Positions 5,177-42,268 of a stretch of 64,000 nt of DNA are shown here, in pieces. Under the pieces are notes generated by a model. That model searched no databases and had not been told where the DNA came from. It worked only from the letters and a program-made list of their open reading frames with translations. A program made the position numbers and the translations under genes. The number at the start of each line of letters is the position of its first letter. Positions within the stretch are counted from its first letter, which is position 1. This DNA comes from a virus, in IMG/VR virus record IMGVR_UViG_3300012347_000106, positions 4,476 through 68,475 of that record, one strand, 5' to 3'.

Positions 5177-6574
5177 TTACACAGGCAGGAGTTTTTCGGC
5201 GCGGCTGTTGACGGCTACGCGGTCTTTGCCGACAGTCTTGGAGCGAGCCTTTTGCACGCGGTCCATCATGGCGTACAGCTTGCGTGCGCCAGCTTCGGTC
5301 GAGCCATTGCCCAACTCAGACACAATGCGCGCAGGCACCACGAACTCACCGTCCGCCAGACGGGCGGGGCGCTTTTCACCGATGGTTGCAGGGATGTCGT
5401 CAGACACACCGTCGCCGGGGCCGCGCAGCAAACGTCCGCCGTCCGAGTAGTCGCCCAGATGGCTTTGGCCACCTTGGGCCAGAGATGCAATACCGCCTTG
5501 GGCGTATCGCATGCCGCCGTTGGCCATCACGGTCTCAGCTTGGTTGCGGTCAGACATAGCCTCGACTGGGCCGGTGTCCATGAGACCACCGCCCGCCGCT
5601 GTGCGGGTGTAGATGGGGTTGAAGTAGTTGCGCTGCCCTGTGGCTGCGCCGGTATAGCCTGCTTGAGGGTCTGCAACGCGGCCGGGATCGTAGCTGTACA
5701 TCCAAGGCTTCTCGGATGGTTTTTGCGCGGCCTTCTCGGGTTCTTGCATCAACAGCGGGAGACCTGCAGCGTAGCCGTACTTCAGCAAACCCATGCCACC
5801 GCCAACACCGGTAGCTTCCACGCCCTTAGATGCGGCGTTACCCATAAAGGCTTCGCGTCCGGCTTCGGTTCCCAAGTTCTTGAAACCTTGGCCGAGCTGT
5901 GAAAACTTGTCGGCCATTGGGGTTGGGGCCGGTGTTGTTGTTGGGACTGCCGCCGCCGCATTGATGGGAGAGACTGGCGGAGCCGAAAACGCAGAAGGCT
6001 GAATGCCTTGAGCAGCCATGTCTGCTTGAAAACCTGCACCCAATTGACCGGCAGTTTGTGCGCCCATGGACGCGCCAGTAGCCCCCACCGTCGGGGTTAT
6101 GCCCTGAGCAGCCATAGAGGCCTCAAAACCTGTACCCAGTTGTGCGGCTGTCTGAGGGCCCATAGACCCCACCCCCGCAGCGCCAGCCTCTGCCGCACCA
6201 ACACCTGCAGCGCCAGCACTCATCAAACCGCCAGCCAAACCCGCACCGCCAAATGCGCCCATGCCCGCCATCAAGCCCTTGCTTAAGCTACCTGTGGCAA
6301 CGCCGTAACCAGCGCCAGTAATACCGGCAGCCATCAACGGGGTCAACGCACCGCCCGACGCAACGGACAAACCAGCGCCAATTACCATGGGCAGGATGCT
6401 CGACAGGAAGCCAGCTTCTGGCAGGCCGGTGTCTGGGTTGGTGGTCAGGGAGCCGCCATGTGCTTTGGCAAGCGCCTGCAGGCCAGCCACCTCTTGTGGG
6501 GCCATGTGGACGAGTTGAGTGTCGGGGCCACGGCCGCGAGAGGCCATGTGTTGTGCGGCAAGTTGTAGGCTCAT
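5177..6574 (-). CDS. Gly/Ala-rich virion protein (putative internal/ejection or tail-associated protein)
   Basis: 465 aa with long G/A-rich segments and a structured C-terminal domain. Part of the late operon. Confidence 0.55.
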   Translation of the reverse strand: MSLQLAAQHMASRGRGPDTQLVHMAPQEVAGLQALAKAHGGSLTTNPDTGLPEAGFLSSILPMVIGAGLSVASGGALTPLMAAGITGAGYGVATGSLSKGLMAGMGAFGGAGLAGGLMSAGAAGVGAAEAGAAGVGSMGPQTAAQLGTGFEASMAAQGITPTVGATGASMGAQTAGQLGAGFQADMAAQGIQPSAFSAPPVSPINAAAAVPTTTPAPTPMADKFSQLGQGFKNLGTEAGREAFMGNAASKGVEATGVGGGMGLLKYGYAAGLPLLMQEPEKAAQKPSEKPWMYSYDPGRVADPQAGYTGAATGQRNYFNPIYTRTAAGGGLMDTGPVEAMSDRNQAETVMANGGMRYAQGGIASLAQGGQSHLGDYSDGGRLLRGPGDGVSDDIPATIGEKRPARLADGEFVVPARIVSELGNGSTEAGARKLYAMMDRVQKARSKTVGKDRVAVNSRAEKLLPV

Positions 6575-32667: not shown

Positions 32668-32696
32668 TTGACAATACCTATATACCTATATACAAT
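32668..32696 (+). promoter_or_regulatory. early promoter P1, sigma70-like (TTGACA-17-TACAAT)
   Basis: Consensus -35 TTGACA, 17-nt spacer, -10 TACAAT, 50 nt upstream of the first early gene. Confidence 0.7.
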
Positions 32697-32745: not shown

Positions 32746-33276
32746 ATGTCAGTTATCAATGCATCCATCATCAACGCCGTCATCAAGTCTTTTGAGGGCG
32801 AAGCCAAAGCCATCGCCAAAGCTCGCACGGCTCAGGACAAAGCCATCCAGTCAGCACTCGATGCCATGTTTATCGCTTGCGACAAGCCAAAGGCTGAGTT
32901 TCTCAAAGGTAACGCCAAGACCAATCCAGCACGGGGCCAGATCAAAGGCATGTTCGACGCCATCGTCGAGGCCGGTTACATCAGCAAGTCGTCAGGCGCA
33001 TCGTATCAGTCAGCCTTCTGGATTGCCTTCGAGCAGGGCGTCGAGTTCAAGCGTGATCTGAACAACAAGAAAGACAAGACCGAAGGCGGCGAAGCCAAGA
33101 CAAGCGCCAAAGCATCGGGCGCAGTGCAAAGCACCAGCCGCACCGACTTGGACAAGACACTCAGCAAAGCAATGGCGCAGGCCCGCTTGCTTGGCTTGCT
33201 GGATTTTGCGGCTGACTTGGTTGACTTGTGCCAAGACCGCTTGGATGGTTTCGAGGAAACCGTGCTCAGCAAGTGA
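32746..33276 (+). CDS. early protein, hypothetical (helical, Lys/Ala-rich)
   Basis: The ORF track ORF starts at the TTG of the -35 element. The true start is ATG at 32746 with an AAAGGA SD. 176 aa. Confidence 0.55.
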   Translation: MSVINASIINAVIKSFEGEAKAIAKARTAQDKAIQSALDAMFIACDKPKAEFLKGNAKTNPARGQIKGMFDAIVEAGYISKSSGASYQSAFWIAFEQGVEFKRDLNNKKDKTEGGEAKTSAKASGAVQSTSRTDLDKTLSKAMAQARLLGLLDFAADLVDLCQDRLDGFEETVLSK

Positions 33277-33281
33277 TACCC

Positions 33282-33325
33282 AAGGGCGCAAGCCCTTGCC
33301 GCCCGGCTTCGGCCGGGCTTTTTTT
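33282..33325 (+). terminator. tandem-hairpin intrinsic terminator
   Basis: AAGGGCgcaaGCCCTT, then GCCCGGCttcgGCCGGGC, followed by TTTTTTT. Confidence 0.7.
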
Positions 33326-33475
33326 CGCCTGTACTTTTTGGAGCCCGAGTTTCCCCACGTCTGTGGGGAAACGTCATAGTAGTGCGACCGTGCGGGAGAG
33401 TGAGCGGGAGTACACGCAGCCGAGTGTGAGGGAGTGGCAGGCACCGGGCGACCGCAGCGCCGGGCCGCCGAAAAG

Positions 33476-33491
33476 TTTTAAGCTTAAAAGT
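33476..33491. repeat. palindromic early-region motif copy (variant TTTTAAGCTTAAAAG)
   Basis: Member of the CTTTTAAGGTTAAAAG family. Confidence 0.6.
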
Positions 33492-33613
33492 ATTGCCTTG
33501 TTGTTGTTGCGGAACAGACGTACAAAAAATCAGGGTGCGTTACAAAACCCCTGTATCAGAACTAAAGCAAAATAGCCCACGGAAAAACTGCAATGAAATC
33601 AACAACTTACAGC

Positions 33614-33630
33614 AGAGAGAGAGAGAGAGA
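33614..33630. repeat. (GA)8-9 dinucleotide microsatellite
   Basis: agagagagagagagaga inside the inverted-repeat-bounded element. Confidence 0.8.
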
Positions 33631-33715
33631 TTAGATATTTATTTGTTTATTGTTACTGATGTACAGGCTTTTAGGTATGAAAAGCTAGGAAAGGTCTTTG
33701 GCTCATTGGCAGAAG

Positions 33716-33730
33716 TTTTAATGTTAAAAG
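33716..33730. repeat. palindromic early-region motif copy (variant TTTTAATGTTAAAAG)
   Basis: Inside the inverted-repeat-bounded element. Confidence 0.6.
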
Positions 33731-33962
33731 TTTGGCCCGGTCAAGGGGTCTCTGGCAGGCTCCACAACCCCTGTATCCACGTCACCGTGAAGATAATAGC
33801 ACCCCCGTTCTCCTCAACCCCCTGTGTTTGTGGGGCTTCCACGCAATCACTTTACATTCCTTGTATCGTAGCAACTTTCCCCATTTGTGTACATCTGTTC
33901 CGCAACAACAACCAGCGAACCCGTGATATACTGGGCACCCCAACAACCAGTCAAGGACTACT

Positions 33963-34763
33963 ATGACCGACCCCATGACCTCCATCACCCTCGAAATCCC
34001 CACCGCCGTGGCCCACAAAATCTCCGAGACTGCCCCCGGCACCCTTGCAGAGACGGCACTCATCGCCCTGCGACTCTACCACGGCTTGGGACTCGACGCC
34101 CGCACCACACTCACCGAGCTGGCCACACACCACAGCCTCACCCCTGCCAAAACCCTGCGACTTGCCATTGAGCAACTGAAGGCGGACACCACACGCTTGC
34201 AGCTTGGTACGGGCACGGCTGGCCGACCCATTGTGAACGGCGACCGTGATGCAGATATATATGCCAAGACCCGGACAGGCATCACCCATGCCACCATCGC
34301 CGCTGCGTACGGCATCTCCCTCGTGCGCGTTGGGCAGATCGTGGCCAAGCAACGTGCCATAAATAAGGACACTACCAAACGGGCGACCCGCACCGCCAAT
34401 GACCCGTGGAATATCGGATTAGCTATGGACGCTGGCCTGAGCGCCGAGGCCGCTGCCGCCCGATACAACCTGACTGTGGACGAAGTGGCCGAACGATACG
34501 CCGCCTACCGCGCCAACTTGCCAGCCAACCCCAACATGCTCGACAAGATCAACGCCGGGCGCACCGCAGAGTCTTCGACTCAGGCAGCGTCTTCAACACA
34601 GGAAGTTTTAACCTTAAAAGAACCACCACGCAAACTGGCAGTCATCCCACCATCCATGAGGAACCCTGAACTGTTCGCAGAGGCCAAGCCGATCAAAATC
34701 CCTGACCCAGCCACAGTGGACATGTCCATGTTTGACCCAAACAACCCAGACTTCGCCATCTAA
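33963..34763 (+). CDS. early protein with HTH-like segment, putative DNA-binding regulator
   Basis: 266 aa with an AAGGA SD. The helix-turn-helix-like stretch ATIAAAYGISLVRVGQIVAKQ and a second AARYNLTVDEVAERYAAY segment. Confidence 0.5.
   Translation: MTDPMTSITLEIPTAVAHKISETAPGTLAETALIALRLYHGLGLDARTTLTELATHHSLTPAKTLRLAIEQLKADTTRLQLGTGTAGRPIVNGDRDADIYAKTRTGITHATIAAAYGISLVRVGQIVAKQRAINKDTTKRATRTANDPWNIGLAMDAGLSAEAAAARYNLTVDEVAERYAAYRANLPANPNMLDKINAGRTAESSTQAASSTQEVLTLKEPPRKLAVIPPSMRNPELFAEAKPIKIPDPATVDMSMFDPNNPDFAI
34606..34620. repeat. palindromic early-region motif copy (reverse orientation TTTTAACCTTAAAAG), inside a CDS
   Basis: Inside the 3' part of gene 33963..34763. Confidence 0.6.
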
Positions 34764-37464: not shown

Positions 37465-37944
37465 ATGAACGCAAGTTACCGACACGGACAGTCCCCACGG
37501 GGCGCACAGACCAACATCTACCGACGTTGGCAACACATGATTCAACGCTGTCATAACCCAAAGGACAGAGACTACCCCCGATATGGTGGGCGAGGTATTT
37601 CCGTATGTGATCGTTGGCGATATGCAGACGAGACGCATACTGGGTTCGAGTACTTCCTCCTCGATATGGGGCTACCACCTAGCAGGTCACACTCGATTGA
37701 CCGCAAAGAAGTGGATGGGGATTACAGCCCCGAGAATTGCCGGTGGGCTACGCCTACTGAGCAAGCCAACAACCGTCGAAGCACAAAAATGCTGACCATC
37801 GACGGCGAAACAAAACCGTTATCTGACTGGTGCAAACAATACAGCATCGGCAGTAAGACGGTACTTTACCGCCTCAAGCACAGAGGCATGACCCCTAAAG
37901 AAGCAATCACAACGCCACTTACGTGGACAAAGGAAAAATCATGA
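37465..37944 (+). CDS. putative homing-endonuclease-family DNA-binding protein (YGGRGIxVCDRW motif family)
   Basis: 159 aa. IYRRWQHMIQRCHNPKDRDYPRYGGRGISVCDRW is the signature found in stand-alone phage proteins usually annotated as HNH/homing endonucleases. AGGAG SD. Confidence 0.5.
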   Translation: MNASYRHGQSPRGAQTNIYRRWQHMIQRCHNPKDRDYPRYGGRGISVCDRWRYADETHTGFEYFLLDMGLPPSRSHSIDRKEVDGDYSPENCRWATPTEQANNRRSTKMLTIDGETKPLSDWCKQYSIGSKTVLYRLKHRGMTPKEAITTPLTWTKEKS

Positions 37945-39008
37945 GCATGTCTATCAATCTGAACCAAGCCGCCACCCTGATTCGCAATGTCGGTACGACC
38001 AATACATTGTTGCTTCGCGGCACCCCCGGCATCGGCAAATCATCCATCTTGCAGACACTCGAACGTGAACTGCCGGACTATCAAATCTGCTACATCGACG
38101 TAGCCAACCTCGACCTCGGCGATCTGGGCATGCCTGTGATCGACAAAGACACAATGGTCACCAACTACGCACCCAACGCTCGCTTCGGTGTAGGCAAGGG
38201 CCAGACACGCCCTGTCGTGCTGATGCTCGACGAGTTGGGTAAAGCGTCACGCCCTGTGCTCAACATGCTGTTGCCTGTGATTCTCGAAGGTCGCATCGGT
38301 GATGTGCCCCTGCCTACCGGCTCCATTGTGTTCGGCACAACCAACCTCGACACTGACGGCGTGGGTGACAACATCCCAGCCCATGCGTTCAACCGTATGA
38401 CTGTCGTGACTGTGGCCAACCCATCGGCCGACCAGTGGATTGACTGGGCATCGGGCCACAACGTAGCCCCCGAGGTGATGGCGTTTGCCAAGCAGTACCC
38501 GCAGGTCTTCGACTGCTATGCAGACCTCGACAAGAAAGACAAGAACCCCTACATCTTCAACCCCATGACGGGCAACGTGCGGGCCTTCTGCTCACCTCGT
38601 TCACTGGTCAAAGCATCGAACATCGTCAAGCAACGCAGTGTGCTCGGCACCTCGTTGATTCCAGCCCTCGCAGGTACTGTCGGTGAAGCCGCAGCCCGTG
38701 ACATGGAAGCCCTCGTGAATCTGGCAGATCAGTTGCCACTGTTCGAGAACATCGTGAAGGCTCCGACCAAGACCAAGGTGCCCGATAGCGTAGGTGCCCT
38801 GTTCATCCTTGCGTTCATGCTGGCAGGTCGTGTCGATGCTGACAACCTCGACCCTGTGATGGAGTACGCCGAGCGTATGTCTGCTCAGTCATTCGAGGCG
38901 CATGCCCTGTTCGTTACATCCCTTGCATCCAACCGCGCCAAGGTGGGTATGGCATGTAAGAACCGTAAGTTCACTGCCGCCGCCGCCAAGCTCGGCAAAT
39001 ACTTTTAA
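37941..39008 (+). CDS. MoxR-like AAA+ ATPase
   Basis: Walker A GTPGIGKSS, Walker B VLMLDELGK, sensor/arginine-finger region. Length and architecture fit the MoxR/CbbQ family. Confidence 0.75.
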   Translation: MSMSINLNQAATLIRNVGTTNTLLLRGTPGIGKSSILQTLERELPDYQICYIDVANLDLGDLGMPVIDKDTMVTNYAPNARFGVGKGQTRPVVLMLDELGKASRPVLNMLLPVILEGRIGDVPLPTGSIVFGTTNLDTDGVGDNIPAHAFNRMTVVTVANPSADQWIDWASGHNVAPEVMAFAKQYPQVFDCYADLDKKDKNPYIFNPMTGNVRAFCSPRSLVKASNIVKQRSVLGTSLIPALAGTVGEAAARDMEALVNLADQLPLFENIVKAPTKTKVPDSVGALFILAFMLAGRVDADNLDPVMEYAERMSAQSFEAHALFVTSLASNRAKVGMACKNRKFTAAAAKLGKYF

Positions 39009-40586: not shown

Positions 40587-41075
40587 ATGAACACATTAAC
40601 TTATGACCGATTGCGCAAAGTCCTCAACTACGACGCACACACCGGCGTGTTTACTTGGCGAACCAAACTCAGCCGAAAGGTTGTTGTTGGCCGTGAAGCT
40701 GGCACGCTAAAACCCAACGGGTATGTATCCATTCGTATCGACCAAAAAGCGTACTACGCGCATCGCCTTGCGTGGTGCTATGTGTACGGTGACTGGCCGG
40801 ACGAAGAGGTCGACCACATTGATGGGGACAAGACCAACAACTGCATAGCAAATCTCAGGCAGGCCAGCCGTAAGCAAAACATGGAAAACCGTGTTCAGCC
40901 CACTGGCGCGTCTGGGTATCGTGGAGTTTGTTGGCTGAAGGCCAACCAGAAATGGCGGGCCAGTATCGTCCATAACGGAAAAAACATCTACTTAGGATTG
41001 TTCAACACGGCGGAAGAGGCAAGCGCTATGTACCGCGATGCCGCCGCTTTCTTTCATACACACAACAGGAGTTAA
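40587..41075 (+). CDS. HNH endonuclease with C-terminal AP2 DNA-binding domain (homing endonuclease)
   Basis: HNH core (AHRLAWCYVYG...VDHIDGDKTNNCIANLRQASRKQN) plus an AP2-type domain (SGYRGVCWLKANQKWRASIVHNGKNIYLGLFNTAEEASAMYRDAA). Confidence 0.8.
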   Translation: MNTLTYDRLRKVLNYDAHTGVFTWRTKLSRKVVVGREAGTLKPNGYVSIRIDQKAYYAHRLAWCYVYGDWPDEEVDHIDGDKTNNCIANLRQASRKQNMENRVQPTGASGYRGVCWLKANQKWRASIVHNGKNIYLGLFNTAEEASAMYRDAAAFFHTHNRS

Positions 41076-41077
41076 TC

Positions 41078-42268
41078 ATGAATGTAGCTGATCGAATCAA
41101 AAAATGTCACATCGCAATAATGCAACACAAGAAGTTCTGCGCTTACTCAGGCATCCTTGCCTGTGGCAAAGTAACTGTCAACACCGATGTACCAACGGCC
41201 GCAACAGACGGCTGGAACGTCATCTACAACCCCGAGTTCATCGCTGAGCACATGCCCACTGACCCGGAACTGCGCTTCCTTGTACTGCACGAGGCAACGC
41301 ACAAAGCATACCGTCACATGGTGACATGGCGCGCACTGCACGAGGAGAACGCACGGCTTGCCAACGTGGCCGCTGACTTCTTCGTGAACCTGACACTGCA
41401 GGACACTGATGACGGTGAAGGCTTCATCAAGATGCCCAAGATCGGCGTGCCCCCTGAGTCTAAGTACCGTGGCTGGTCTGTCGCCATGATCTACGCTGAC
41501 CTCAAGAAACAGATGGACGAGCAAGAGGCAAGTGGTGGGGGTGGTAACGGCAATGGTGGCGAGAACGGTGAACTCGACGAGCACGACTGGTCGGGCAACG
41601 ATGCCAACGGTGACCCCGCCAAGGAACAGCAACAAGCTGACGAGATTCAACGCGCCATCCGTCAGGGCGAGATCATGCGCAAGAAGCTGGCAGGTAAGGG
41701 TGCTGGCCAATCGGACGGCTTGTTCGGCGACCTCATGGCCCCCGCCATCGACTGGAAGAAAGTGTTGCGCGAGTTCATCACCGAGACATGCGCAGGTCGT
41801 GACGAGTCTTCATGGCGCAAGCCCAACCGCCGCTACCTCGGCATGGACATTTACATGCCCTCGATGGTCGGCACAACTATGACGGAACTCGTGATCGGCT
41901 TCGACACATCCGGCTCGATCTTCGGTGGCAACGAGATGACACGCTTCGTGTCTGAGATCAAGACCATCATCGAGGACGTCAAGCCAAGCAAGGTGCATGT
42001 GATCTATTGGGACACACGAGTTGCAGGGCACCAGACATTCGATGACGGACAGTTCGCTGTTCAGGAACTCAAGATCAAAGGCGGTGGCGGCACAGACGGT
42101 TCTGTGCTGTTCGACTACCTGCGTGACAAGCACATCAACCCACAAGCCATCGTGCAGTTCACTGACGGCTATGTCGGTAGCTGGGGCCGCACTGACGTGC
42201 CTACGCTGTGGGCCATCACATCGGACTTGGTGGCACCGTTCGGCACATCCATCAAGGTGGAAGTATGA
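41078..42268 (+). CDS. vWA-domain protein with N-terminal HExxH metallopeptidase-like domain (DUF2201 type)
   Basis: LVLHEATH zinc-binding motif in the N-terminal domain. The C-terminal vWA/MIDAS-like region is GFDTSGS...DG. This is the typical partner of MoxR ATPases. Confidence 0.7.
   Translation: MNVADRIKKCHIAIMQHKKFCAYSGILACGKVTVNTDVPTAATDGWNVIYNPEFIAEHMPTDPELRFLVLHEATHKAYRHMVTWRALHEENARLANVAADFFVNLTLQDTDDGEGFIKMPKIGVPPESKYRGWSVAMIYADLKKQMDEQEASGGGGNGNGGENGELDEHDWSGNDANGDPAKEQQQADEIQRAIRQGEIMRKKLAGKGAGQSDGLFGDLMAPAIDWKKVLREFITETCAGRDESSWRKPNRRYLGMDIYMPSMVGTTMTELVIGFDTSGSIFGGNEMTRFVSEIKTIIEDVKPSKVHVIYWDTRVAGHQTFDDGQFAVQELKIKGGGGTDGSVLFDYLRDKHINPQAIVQFTDGYVGSWGRTDVPTLWAITSDLVAPFGTSIKVEV

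Follow-up and report, generated by a model that had tools for sequence, protein, structure and literature searches.

A candidate iteron-type origin and early-operon control region bracketed by mirror-image arms in a family of uncultured freshwater phages

Described origins and operators, and the present locus

In plasmid pSC101, inverted repeats that overlap the rep promoter autoregulate rep. The early operator of phage Mu holds an IHF site between repeated operator sites, and Mor/C-dependent promoters carry dyad sites upstream and have no -35 element. In the origins of staphylococcal pathogenicity islands (SaPIs), iterons flank a central AT-rich region on either side (PMC9371898), and the λ origin has inverted-repeat iterons beside an A+T-rich region (PMC5043065). 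At the λ origin and at iteron plasmid origins (pSC101, R6K γ) the iterons bind dimers, a nucleoid protein such as IHF aids opening, and transcription activates or regulates the origin (PMC5043065).

We analyzed a locus within a 64,000-nucleotide stretch of viral DNA (the window) at which a pair of long inverted repeats brackets a short noncoding interior. The original prediction had offered three readings of this element, namely a MITE-like insertion, a replication origin, or an invertible or RNA-structured segment; these were supported in part, in that the MITE reading failed and the origin reading fitted best. We propose that the core of a conserved noncoding control region is enclosed by the two arms, as the outermost pair of mirror-image DNA sites, and that this region would combine an iteron-type origin with the early-operon promoter, and judging from sequence anatomy we would give this proposal about an even chance of being correct.

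Similar to SaPI origins, short repeats lie here on both sides of an AT-rich centre, and the phage encodes a 944-aa primase-helicase whose helicase portion matches a solved staphylococcal pathogenicity-island protein (8tch; E = 4e-7), which we take to be a SaPI Rep-type helicase. A comparable iteron-type origin, that of a self-loading helicase initiator, is found in phage P4. The SaPI origin is compact and lies immediately downstream of rep, however, whereas the present region covers about 600 bp and is about 27 kb from the helicase gene; its repeats are mostly palindromic 13-mers instead of 5-6-nt iterons, it has an additional (AG)n tract, mirrored long arms and a promoter, and binding to it is predicted. 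With the λ, pSC101 and R6K γ origins the locus shares inverted-repeat sites adjoining an A+T-rich region, an IHF site and a promoter, and the position of the right arm over the promoter resembles that of the inverted repeats over the rep promoter of pSC101, although no recognisable O or Rep components were found here and no DnaA box was found in the region. Known origins are also compact, whereas the arms of this locus lie 355 nt apart and are off-centre to the AT tract. Likeness to the Mu early operator and to Mor/C-dependent promoters lies in the IHF site among repeats, the -35-less promoter and weak Mor/C-like signals in the downstream protein, although these protein matches fall below threshold (16.7 bits in Pfam, where the cut-off is 24.9; E of about 0.5-0.9 in Foldseek).

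Landmarks of the noncoding region

The element is the core of a conserved intergenic region of about 690 bp that separates the first early gene from the early operon. The gene-free gap that holds it is the longest in the window; predicted at about 640 bp, it measures 686 nt (33277-33962). An ORF that spans the element (33493-33966), begins just after a motif copy, ends in an ATGA overlap and is the source of the peptide CCCGTDV was considered as a coding candidate and rejected: relatives keep merely 3-111 of its codons open, and substitutions fall evenly across the three codon positions. Because the ORF is neither conserved nor marked by codon periodicity, the region is regarded as noncoding, which bears out the original prediction. 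Upstream of the arms and between them the following landmarks were identified.

33301..33331, + strand: intrinsic terminator of the first early gene, a 7-bp all-GC stem (33301-33318) followed by T7; conserved in relatives
33349..33372, + strand: hairpin GTTTCCCCAC-gtct-GTGGGGAAAC, adjoining the invariant box
33372..33392, + strand: invariant box CGTCATAGTAGTgcGACCGTG, an inverted match to the downstream start-codon context
33393..33470, + strand: left flank, G- and purine-rich (composition over 44 relatives)
33473..33497, no strand assigned: palindromic motif copy 1 (motif 33473-33491) with its flank (AAGTTTTAAGCTTAAAAGTATTGCC), directly outside the left arm
33538..33557, no strand assigned: iteron-like sites GTTACAAAA and CCCCTGTATC, homologous to sites of relatives; includes the first of two predicted boxes
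33597..33609, + strand: AATCAACAACTTA, an exact match to the IHF consensus WATCAANNNNTTR
33614..33630, + strand: (AG)8A polypurine tract, 17 nt
33628..33730, no strand assigned: AT-rich core, candidate DNA-unwinding element, with the lowest GC of the 64 kb
33652..33665, no strand assigned: central quasi-palindromic site GTTACTGATGTACA at the right edge of the AT tract, aligning with GTTACAaTGTAAC of relatives
33713..33737, no strand assigned: palindromic motif copy 2 (AAGTTTTAATGTTAAAAGTTTGGCC; motif 33713-33731), conserved in the close clade
33766..33777, + strand: AACCCCTGTATC, the second predicted box, an iteron-like half-site inside the C-rich right flank

The first early gene, which probably starts at an ATG near 32746 and ends at 33276, is followed by the terminator that had been predicted for it, and most of the other predicted landmarks were likewise recovered. 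The interior is AT-rich, its GC falling to 0.375; it contains the anticipated motif copy (33713-33731); a further copy (33473-33491) abuts the left arm from outside; the box expected in duplicate near 33547 and 33768 is exact at 33546-33557 and 33766-33777; and the dinucleotide tract is present, although slightly shorter than the (GA)9 originally described. In the window as a whole, most copies of the palindromic motif lie 2-25 nt ahead of start codons.

Much of this anatomy is retained in relatives. The hairpin at 33349-33372 keeps its structure with unrelated stem sequences in 37 distinct relatives, and the adjoining invariant box, whose core GTCATAGTAGT is exactly complementary to the context of the downstream start codon, was found in 33 metagenome and 40 IMG/VR stretches and, among bacterial genomes, in one MAG contig only. 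Across 44 relatives the left flank has a mean GC skew of +0.18 and a purine fraction of 0.59, the C-rich right flank has a mean GC skew of -0.25, and this mirrored skew with an AT-rich centre is present in 44/44, the centre being at most 25% GC over 40 nt in each of the 44. The lowest-GC 60-nt and 100-nt windows of the entire 64 kb start at 33628 and 33630. The only match to the IHF consensus in the window is that at 33597-33609, and the consensus is enriched in relatives, 28 of the 44 having a match inside their own region. The (AG)n tract is 16-17 nt long in the eight tabulated genomes of the window clade and reaches at least 11 nt in 37/44 relatives.

The repeats themselves were compared with the remainder of the sequence. 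This revealed that GTTAC/GTAAC occurs at 17-24 per kb in the region versus about 1.1 outside in most relatives, a 16-20-fold enrichment, and that the repeats of most relatives are mainly palindromic 13-mers, with 11-15 copies over about 600 bp. In the window lineage the iterons are degenerate and exact GTTAC copies number only two, but the degenerate GTWAC-type family still reaches 20.4 per kb versus 4.8 outside (4-fold), and the iteron-like sites at 33538-33557 have homologues in relatives, where the sites read GTTACAAAA and ccccTGTAAC. GTWAC-type sites cluster on both sides of the AT centre. An opposite polarity of half-sites across that centre, as in SaPI origins, was also considered; the orientation bias is weak (odds ratio 1.5, p = 0.08). 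Cumulative GC skew peaks at 33759; the switch is of low amplitude and, being a maximum, differs in sign from the switch at a bacterial origin.

The iteron-like repeats, the AT-richest core, the IHF site and the mirrored flanks are the reasons why, among the readings originally offered, a replication origin fits this anatomy best, as a candidate assignment. The replication genes lie about 20-27 kb from the region. No competing origin-like region was found in the window or downstream of the helicase gene, although in a general scan of repeat density for further candidates the signal was dominated by repeats within coding sequence; downstream of the primase-helicase gene, a stretch taken from another contig held no intergenic candidate.

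Arms, promoter and downstream gene in the window and its relatives

The arms (TTGTTGTTGCGGAACAGACGTACA) lie at 33501-33524 (+) and 33888-33911 (-) and match over 24 nt with one mismatch; extended to 33497-33528 and 33884-33915, they cover 32 nt at 91% complementarity with 355 nt between them. The window holds just two copies of the arm, with none expected from 100 shuffles, and the top long-range 24-nt inverted repeat in the window scores 23/24 against a shuffle maximum of 16, placing the originally described arms far above chance. They are not centred on the AT tract. The arms and the features to the right of them are as follows.

33497..33528, + strand: left arm, with an outer (GTT)3-type element, GGAACAG, and an inner CGTACA with an A-tract
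33884..33915, - strand: right arm, spanning about -55 to -24 of the putative promoter
33924..33932, + strand: putative extended -10 promoter element TGaTATACT of the early operon, conserved in relatives
33941..33950, + strand: second CAACAACCAG, in direct orientation to the copy at the right arm's outer end (33906-33915)
33957..33967, + strand: ACTACTATGAC, start-codon context of the gene for a 266-aa multi-HTH protein (ATG 33963), complementary to the invariant box

TGnTAyACT is kept in all close relatives, and most relatives have a TAyAyT element 30-45 nt ahead of the ATG; a consensus promoter scan made no call for TGaTATACT because it has no -35. Transcription would be expected to start near 33939. 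The right arm would overlap the -35/UP zone of this conserved extended -10 promoter for a multi-HTH DNA-binding protein, and the two CAACAACCAG copies (33906-33915 and 33941-33950) sit on either side of the -10. The corresponding promoter-proximal site of other lineages holds a palindromic motif, located 21-35 nt ahead of the -10. A fixed Mor/C-like geometry at -43.5, suggested by two relatives, was rejected because the distance from motif to -10 varies between 21 and 45 nt. Downstream, the CTATGA context is at the expected position in 44/47 relatives, and in each locus examined it is where the gene starts. HTH domains are the only ones present in the 266-aa protein and its homologues; the predicted structure of the 266-aa protein is all-helical with two confident HTH modules (mean pLDDT 69), the structural model has no significant match in the PDB, and the sequence has none among solved structures.

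The region is carried at the same place by a family of uncultured freshwater phages: about 45 distinct related phage contigs, which are related metagenomic assemblies and thus not independent counts, have the same interior, landmarks and orientation between the same two genes, and most are without these arms. The large terminase of the family is about 42% identical to that of HTVC023P-type pelagiphages, the nearest isolates, papers on which make no mention of origins, repeats or promoters. Searches of 50,697 phage records by megablast with the region and by tblastn with the upstream protein gave no match, and neither did N-terminal peptides of the downstream protein in an initial scan of metagenomes.

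Arm sequences vary widely among these phages. In 11/11 close relatives the outer (GTT)3/(AAC)3 pair is conserved on both sides, while the inner part of the left arm is variable. The repeat is absent from 4/9 close lineages. Long arms cannot be essential, because L001 and L087-L089, the closest relatives, have lost arm complementarity; in L001 the right arm is kept (27/29) although the left arm is lost. A 10-mer in L001 is reversed in place. Mirror pairs occupy the same two positions in other lineages: that of L031 (32 nt, 88%, 356-nt gap) is private and unrelated in sequence to the window arms, as is that of L014 (29 nt, 86%, 338-nt gap), and L015 (18 nt, 100%, gap 373) and L008 (17 nt, 94%, gap 378) carry shorter pairs. 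Within-genome arm scores exceed cross-genome scores for the window, L031, L014 and L013. The L038 arms share only bipartite TTGTTGTTG ... GTGTAyA elements.

Within each genome the two arms share one allele, and mirrored substitutions are seen in L078. Overall, 67.7% of the cells in the pair count are paired versus 62.2% in shuffles (0/500 as high), covariation is 0.147 versus 0.093, and the 12 pairs changed on both sides are a value reached in 22/500 shuffles; complementarity also lies above slide controls, and about half of the genomes leave the stem's inner half unpaired. The window region is a recombination mosaic of L085-like (195/196), L078-like (65/68), L085-like (139/141) and L001-like (60/61) segments with crossovers inside both arms, a pattern to which chimeric assembly could contribute in part. 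The allele GTTGCGGAAC of the left arm is unique among left arms and equals the right-arm allele. Concerted change, or else the recent homogenisation of a mirror pair of ancestral date, would account for the near-identity of the arms here.

If the region is an origin with an early promoter, a phage DNA-binding protein would occupy the repeats and both arms, candidate binders being the adjacent multi-HTH protein and the SaPI-Rep-like primase-helicase. IHF would then bend the DNA, the AT-rich core would melt and the helicase would load, and occupancy of the right arm could couple early-operon transcription to the initiation complex. The left arm would be an auxiliary mirror copy, possibly for looping, that has been lost in some lineages. 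On this proposal the region would mark the replication origin and early-control hub of a widespread uncultured freshwater phage family, recognisable by the invariant box, the palindromic motif, the iterons and the (AG)n/AT core; it could serve as an annotation anchor for genome orientation, the early/late boundary and dependence on a host factor (IHF), and would offer defined sites for experimental testing.

Alternative explanations of the arms

Like MITEs and IS termini, the element has a terminal inverted-repeat pair (23/24 nt; 32 nt, 91%) around a few hundred noncoding bp, but an insertion of this kind into the intergenic region is almost certainly not the explanation: exact-pattern scans of the window, IMG/VR and 185,579 bacterial and archaeal genomes found no further arm copy or related termini, the flanks (...AAAGTATTGC before the left arm and CGAACCCGTG after the right) contain no direct repeat that would represent a target-site duplication, and there is no empty site, because relatives lacking the arms keep an orthologous interior in this location. 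The original prediction had itself named the lack of further copies or related termini, along with relatives that have the region but not the repeats, as grounds for dropping the MITE reading. In a phage, a short noncoding core enclosed by inverted repeats need not signal a mobile element. The fimS switch has a similar anatomy, with inverted repeats flanking an IHF-site segment next to a promoter, and here 24-32 bp repeats flank about 355 bp with an IHF site beside a promoter; a site-specific recombinase acting on the arms to flip the segment is nevertheless highly unlikely, as the interior has one orientation in all of the roughly 45 relatives, and a search of about 45 ORFs against Pfam or PHROGs turned up no recombinase, leaving the predicted invertible segment weakly supported at best. 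An IHF-like 13-mer on the opposite strand and side in other clades had suggested inversion of the whole interior between clades, which was rejected since forward similarity exceeds reverse-complement similarity (33/36 interior comparisons). Repeated sites occur together with IHF in λ cosB as well, and the putative small and large terminase genes are about 1-1.5 kb away, so that repeated terminase-binding sites with an IHF bend could form a pac or cos-like packaging site; this seems very improbable given that a complete gene with its own promoter and terminator stands between the region and the terminase genes, that the contig ends of relatives are not concentrated at a single position, and that an iteron-flanked AT-rich core is no known pac or cos hallmark.

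An unlikely but reasonable possibility is that the locus controls transcription only, with the right arm as primary operator and the left arm as an auxiliary operator 387 bp upstream, both serving an early-operon regulator, perhaps by IHF-assisted looping, with no role in replication. The placement of the right arm across the promoter, the CAACAACCAG copies flanking its -10, the palindromic motif at the equivalent place in other lineages, the multi-HTH product of the downstream gene with its weak Mor/C-like hints, and the retention of the promoter-proximal arm alone in L001 all suit such a scheme, which accounts neither for the universal core, AT-rich or homopolymeric, nor for the (AG)n tract, the 11-15 palindromic repeats or the mirrored G/C composition. 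It also does not exclude an origin, as origins activated or autoregulated by transcription are known (PMC5043065). The arms could instead pair as single strands, in a read-through transcript or in unwound DNA, to close a domain of about 355 nt and make, for instance, an RNase III substrate or an initiation intermediate. They dominate the predicted fold of the window sequence (z = -2.0), L031 has arms of equal length and gap with unrelated sequence, and mirrored changes of the compensatory type are observed; however, the L001 sequence folds no better than its shuffles (z = +0.5), mismatches comprise 19 disruptive changes and 8 gaps with 4 (+ strand) or 8 (- strand) G·U-compatible ones, about as expected by chance, the inner half of the stem often fails to pair, and where the stem is gone, in L001 and L087-L089, the right arm persists. 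The interior has DNA-type features (the AT tract, a T30 run in L017 and sites in both orientations), no Rfam match reaches the gathering score in the window, sub-threshold ones falling only on the upstream terminator, and a strong terminator stands ahead of the region with a conserved promoter downstream of the right arm. Such pairing is therefore improbable, and the long-range RNA stem of the original prediction is at best weakly supported. Based on the lack of G·U bias, the partnerless right arm of L001 and the purely bipartite elements of L038, we infer that the arms act at the DNA rather than the RNA level.

The repeat might also be a neutral by-product of template switching, gene conversion or recombination between conserved patches, with no function of its own, and the mosaic structure with crossovers inside both arms, the unique left-arm allele GTTGCGGAAC shared with the right arm, the lineages without the repeat and the reversed 10-mer of L001 would all fit. 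We consider this quite unlikely in view of the independent private arm pairs at the same length, spacing and positions in L031 and L014, the outer pair kept on both sides in close relatives, and complementarity in excess of both controls. A further and rather doubtful possibility is that the arm positions are selected for mutual complementarity and not for a particular sequence, the single strands pairing upon core opening or in a read-through transcript, a reading prompted by private 29-32-nt pairs, unrelated in sequence but matching in length and roughly in gap, that arose or were replaced at these two positions in three lineages or more (the window clade, L031 and L014). If the arms do pair, a stem-loop of about 355 nt would take part in origin firing or early-mRNA processing, an architecture not described for phages. 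The repeated replacement of arm sequences at fixed positions is the one feature that deserves follow-up.

Setting and inverted repeat

Gene content marks the window as phage DNA. Genes for the tail, large terminase and portal occupy the − strand up to 32439, and to the right of this a divergent junction is followed by + strand early genes, which farther right include a family A DNA polymerase, an exonuclease, a helicase and a 944-aa DUF927 primase-helicase. No close isolated phage was found, the best large-terminase match being approximately 42% identical and of the HTVC023P-type pelagiphages. The first early gene (upstream gene) was placed by a mechanical ORF list so that a near-consensus promoter falls at its start, and alignment with relatives moves the real start to an ATG near 32746 (MSVINAS...). 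Its 176-aa product has no family match, and the gene is a self-contained unit, running from promoter through terminator. As originally predicted, it ends in a strong terminator and is followed by an unusually long gene-free gap, which at 686 nt is the window's longest and reaches to the ATG (33963) of a 266-aa multi-HTH protein gene (downstream gene).

Features of the gap and its surroundings
32668-32696: near-consensus sigma-70 promoter, TTGACA-17-TACAAT (11/12)
33301-33318: terminator of the upstream gene
33473: palindromic motif 1, adjoining the left arm
33497-33528 and 33884-33915: extended arms, 32 nt, 91% complementary, gap 355 nt
33546 and 33766: exact copies of the duplicated box AACCCCTGTATC
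33597-33609, +: IHF-consensus match AATCAACAACTTA, the sole one in the window
33614-33630: (AG)8A tract
33713: palindromic motif 2
33924-33932: extended −10 TGaTATACT of a putative promoter

The inverted repeat is confirmed: a one-mismatch copy of the 24-mer TTGTTGTTGCGGAACAGACGTACA (33501-33524, +) lies at 33888-33911 (−), and this 23/24 match is the top 24-nt long-range inverted repeat, where shuffles reach at most 16. No further arm copies occur in the window at up to three mismatches, and none are expected from shuffles. The duplicated box and the interior motif copy were located as predicted; the purine dinucleotide tract is present too, as (AG)8A rather than the (GA)9 described. An ORF at 33493-33966 covers the whole element (arms plus interior) and overlaps the next gene at its end (ATGA). 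It was rejected as a gene because relatives keep just 3-111 of its codons open and substitutions are even over the three codon positions, which upholds the noncoding status of the element. Motif 1 beside the left arm reads AAAAGTATTGCC, resembling a decayed gene start.

Conserved layout and origin-like anatomy

Scans of IMG/VR and JGI metagenomes guided by proteins and by sequence patterns, together with look-ups of close homologues, yielded the orthologous region in 47 distinct, complete copies from related uncultured phage contigs (L001 and so on), 44 of which were used in family-wide analyses. In all copies obtained, the region sits between the same two genes with its landmarks in the same order: on the left, terminator, hairpin, the invariant 21-nt box CGTCATAGTAGTnnGACCGTG, a G-/purine-rich stretch and a palindromic 16-18-mer; in the middle, short GTTACA/TGTAAC-type repeats, an A-rich block, and (GA)n with an AT-rich tract; and on the right, further repeats in a C-rich stretch, a TAyAyT −10-like element and the gene start CTATGAC. 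The (AG)n tract measures 16-17 nt in the eight window-clade genomes tabulated, even though dinucleotide repeats are prone to slippage; in L017 approximately 30 T (T30) take its place, and L024 and L028 have degenerate AT-rich sequence alone. The hairpin (33349-33392 in the window, with the box) covaries, with unrelated stems in 37 relatives, and adjoins the invariant box. Its core GTCATAGTAGT is fully complementary to ACTACTATGAC, which surrounds the start codon of the downstream gene at a distance of 573 nt (33957-33967), and both are conserved family-wide; this complementarity may reflect a small-RNA seed or an anti-start element acting in cis.

Most relatives carry 11-15 GTTAC/GTAAC sites in approximately 650 bp (17-24 per kb), versus approximately 1.1 per kb elsewhere on the contig, and many of these sites form 13-bp palindromes, GTTACAaTGTAAC. 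Drift in the window lineage has turned the sites into GTACA/GTATC forms (20.4 versus 4.8 per kb), and the originally described CCCCTGTATC boxes are homologous to ccccTGTAAC half-sites. Clusters of these sites flank an AT-rich centre that contains the 60-nt and 100-nt stretches with the least GC anywhere in the 64 kb and is at or below 25% GC in 44/44 relatives analysed. Cumulative GC skew over the window peaks at 33759, and all 44 relatives have a G-rich left flank (mean skew +0.18) and a C-rich right one (−0.25). An IHF-consensus match lies inside the region in 28 of 44 relatives, with approximately 0.01 expected per region; the 13-mer is on the + strand, 17 nt left of the tract, in the window clade, whereas some clades have it across the centre and on the opposite strand. 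In L004-L008, L013, L018, L019, L022, L030, L059, L063, L065 and L077 this opposite-strand 13-mer, AATCAACAACTTA (or ...AGTTA), was seen approximately 220 nt right of (GA)n.

Iterons flanking an AT-rich centre are recognised by self-loading Rep helicases in SaPIs (PMC9371898), and in λ ori an A+T-rich region is adjoined by inverted-repeat iterons, with IHF added in plasmid origins (PMC5043065). For the helicase portion of the 944-aa primase-helicase, a match was obtained to a staphylococcal pathogenicity-island protein of solved structure (E = 4e-7). The 266-aa protein gives Pfam matches below threshold (Mor, Sigma70_r4), and its homologues contain HTH domains and no others, some being named Mor-family regulators; structure prediction gives an all-helical fold in which two three-helix modules are confident, and the PDB offers no significant match to it. 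This exact protein is already recorded, on a 68.5-kb metagenomic contig. No DnaA box was found. The window contains no comparable intergenic region elsewhere, and the stretch downstream of the primase-helicase gene, taken from another contig, offers no suitable origin candidate. Among the readings first proposed, a replication origin is the best fit to this anatomy, from which we infer origin function.

Mirrored arms and the competing readings

The right arm spans approximately −55 to −24 of the putative promoter, whose −10 is kept as TGnTAyACT in the close clade (the relatives nearest to the window) and has CAACAACCAG copies on both sides. In most relatives both arm positions hold a palindromic 13-mer with an inward A-tract, and therefore left and right sites are already mirror images, as in L015 and L008. 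In three lineages (the window clade, L031 and L014) the outer half has been swapped for private, still mirrored sequence.

Arm pairs and left-right arm identity
L015: 18 nt, 100%, gap 373 nt
L008: 17 nt, 94%, gap 378
L031: 32 nt, 88%, gap 356 nt, sequence unrelated
L014: 29 nt, 86%, gap 338 nt
Window (this and the rows below, close clade): identity 0.88
L085: 0.85
L090: 0.82
L091: 0.79
L038: 0.77
L078: 0.70
L087-L089: 0.63-0.67, near background
L001: 0.56, near background

The outer (GTT)3/(AAC)3 pair is retained on both sides in 11/11 close-clade genomes. Each genome has the same allele in both arms (…GTTGCGGAAC in the window; …GTGTGGAAC in L085, L090 and L091), and L078 carries two mirrored substitutions. 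Across ten genomes, paired cells amounted to 67.7% versus 62.2 ± 1.4 in shuffles (0/500 as high), dropping to 35-48% with partners slid, and the covariation score was 0.147 versus 0.093 (3/500); the inner half of the arms is unpaired in about half of these genomes.

A MITE-like insertion, as originally suggested, is refuted, every defining feature failing except the repeats themselves: neither second arm copies nor related termini were found, exact-pattern scans of IMG/VR and of 185,579 bacterial and archaeal genomes yielding no arm copies, target-site duplications are absent at the arm flanks, and an empty site is lacking, since relatives without arms retain an orthologous interior. These results coincide with the grounds for rejection that were set out originally. 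An invertible segment bounded by the arms is a reading left unsupported by the interior orientation, which is identical in every relative, with forward similarity exceeding reverse-complement similarity. Pairing of the arms into an RNA stem draws on the window fold (z = −2.0, owed to the arms) and is likewise unsupported. Arm mismatches have no G·U preference (4 G·U-compatible on the + strand and 8 on the − strand, 19 otherwise, plus 8 gaps), L001 does not out-fold its shuffles (z = +0.5) and keeps its right arm (27/29) with the left gone, and Rfam finds nothing in the element. In L038 the arms have in common bipartite TTGTTGTTG ... GTGTAyA elements and nothing else. Separately functional DNA sites fit these observations better than a stem.

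We commit to the arms as the predicted outer mirror-image sites for protein binding in a control region that combines an iteron-type origin with an early promoter; in it the right arm would also serve as promoter operator and the left arm would be a dispensable auxiliary copy. Orthology, enrichment of the sites, the AT core, the IHF consensus and a mirrored architecture that recurs with other sequences are established, and from them protein binding, origin function and the promoter are inferred. The feature most worth experiment is that arm sequence has been swapped repeatedly while the positions stayed fixed.

Mosaicism and the recurring palindrome

Region 33277-33962 of the window is a recombination patchwork of three relatives (L085, L078 and L001), with crossovers within the left arm, near motif 2 and within the right arm.

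Best matches of mosaic segments
33277-33472: L085, 195/196
33641-33705: L078, 65/68
33761-33901: L085, 139/141
33902-33962: L001, 60/61

Assembly chimeras are a possible source of this pattern. Because the window left-arm allele occurs in no other left arm yet is identical to the window right arm, the comparison suggests that the window arms were homogenised recently. At 5527-5550, L001 has the 10-mer CGTCTGTTCC where the window (33497-33528) has its reverse complement GGAACAGACG, and CTGTTCC is therefore a direct, not inverted, repeat there, an in-place mini-inversion.

Junctions between early-region genes repeatedly carry a palindromic 16-mer, CTTTTAAssTTAAAAG (32640-53460, approximately 15 sites, among them 36361, 37391, 39002, 39971, 40545, 42498, 44837 and 47547), mostly 2-25 nt upstream of start codons, with 24 strand-matches versus 0.02 expected. 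Its sequence varies among phage lineages with palindromy kept (AGTCTTAAGCTTAAGACT, CTTCTAAGCTTAGAAG, CTTCTAACGTTAGAAG, CATCTAATATTAGATG), and its possible roles are as an operator bound by a dimeric protein that evolves along with it, as a hairpin in RNA where translation starts, or as a junction for shuffling, comparable to the T4 promoter-stem-loop cassettes. A near-identical module, AAAAGT-ATGACCGA(C) (Met-Thr-Asp), opens several early genes right after a motif copy (36375, 42512, 33961). The early region also encodes the following.

Further early-region genes
37465-37944 and 40587-41075: two HNH endonuclease genes
37923-39008 with 41078-42268: MoxR-type AAA ATPase gene and a separate gene with DUF2201 metallopeptidase-like and VWA-like domains
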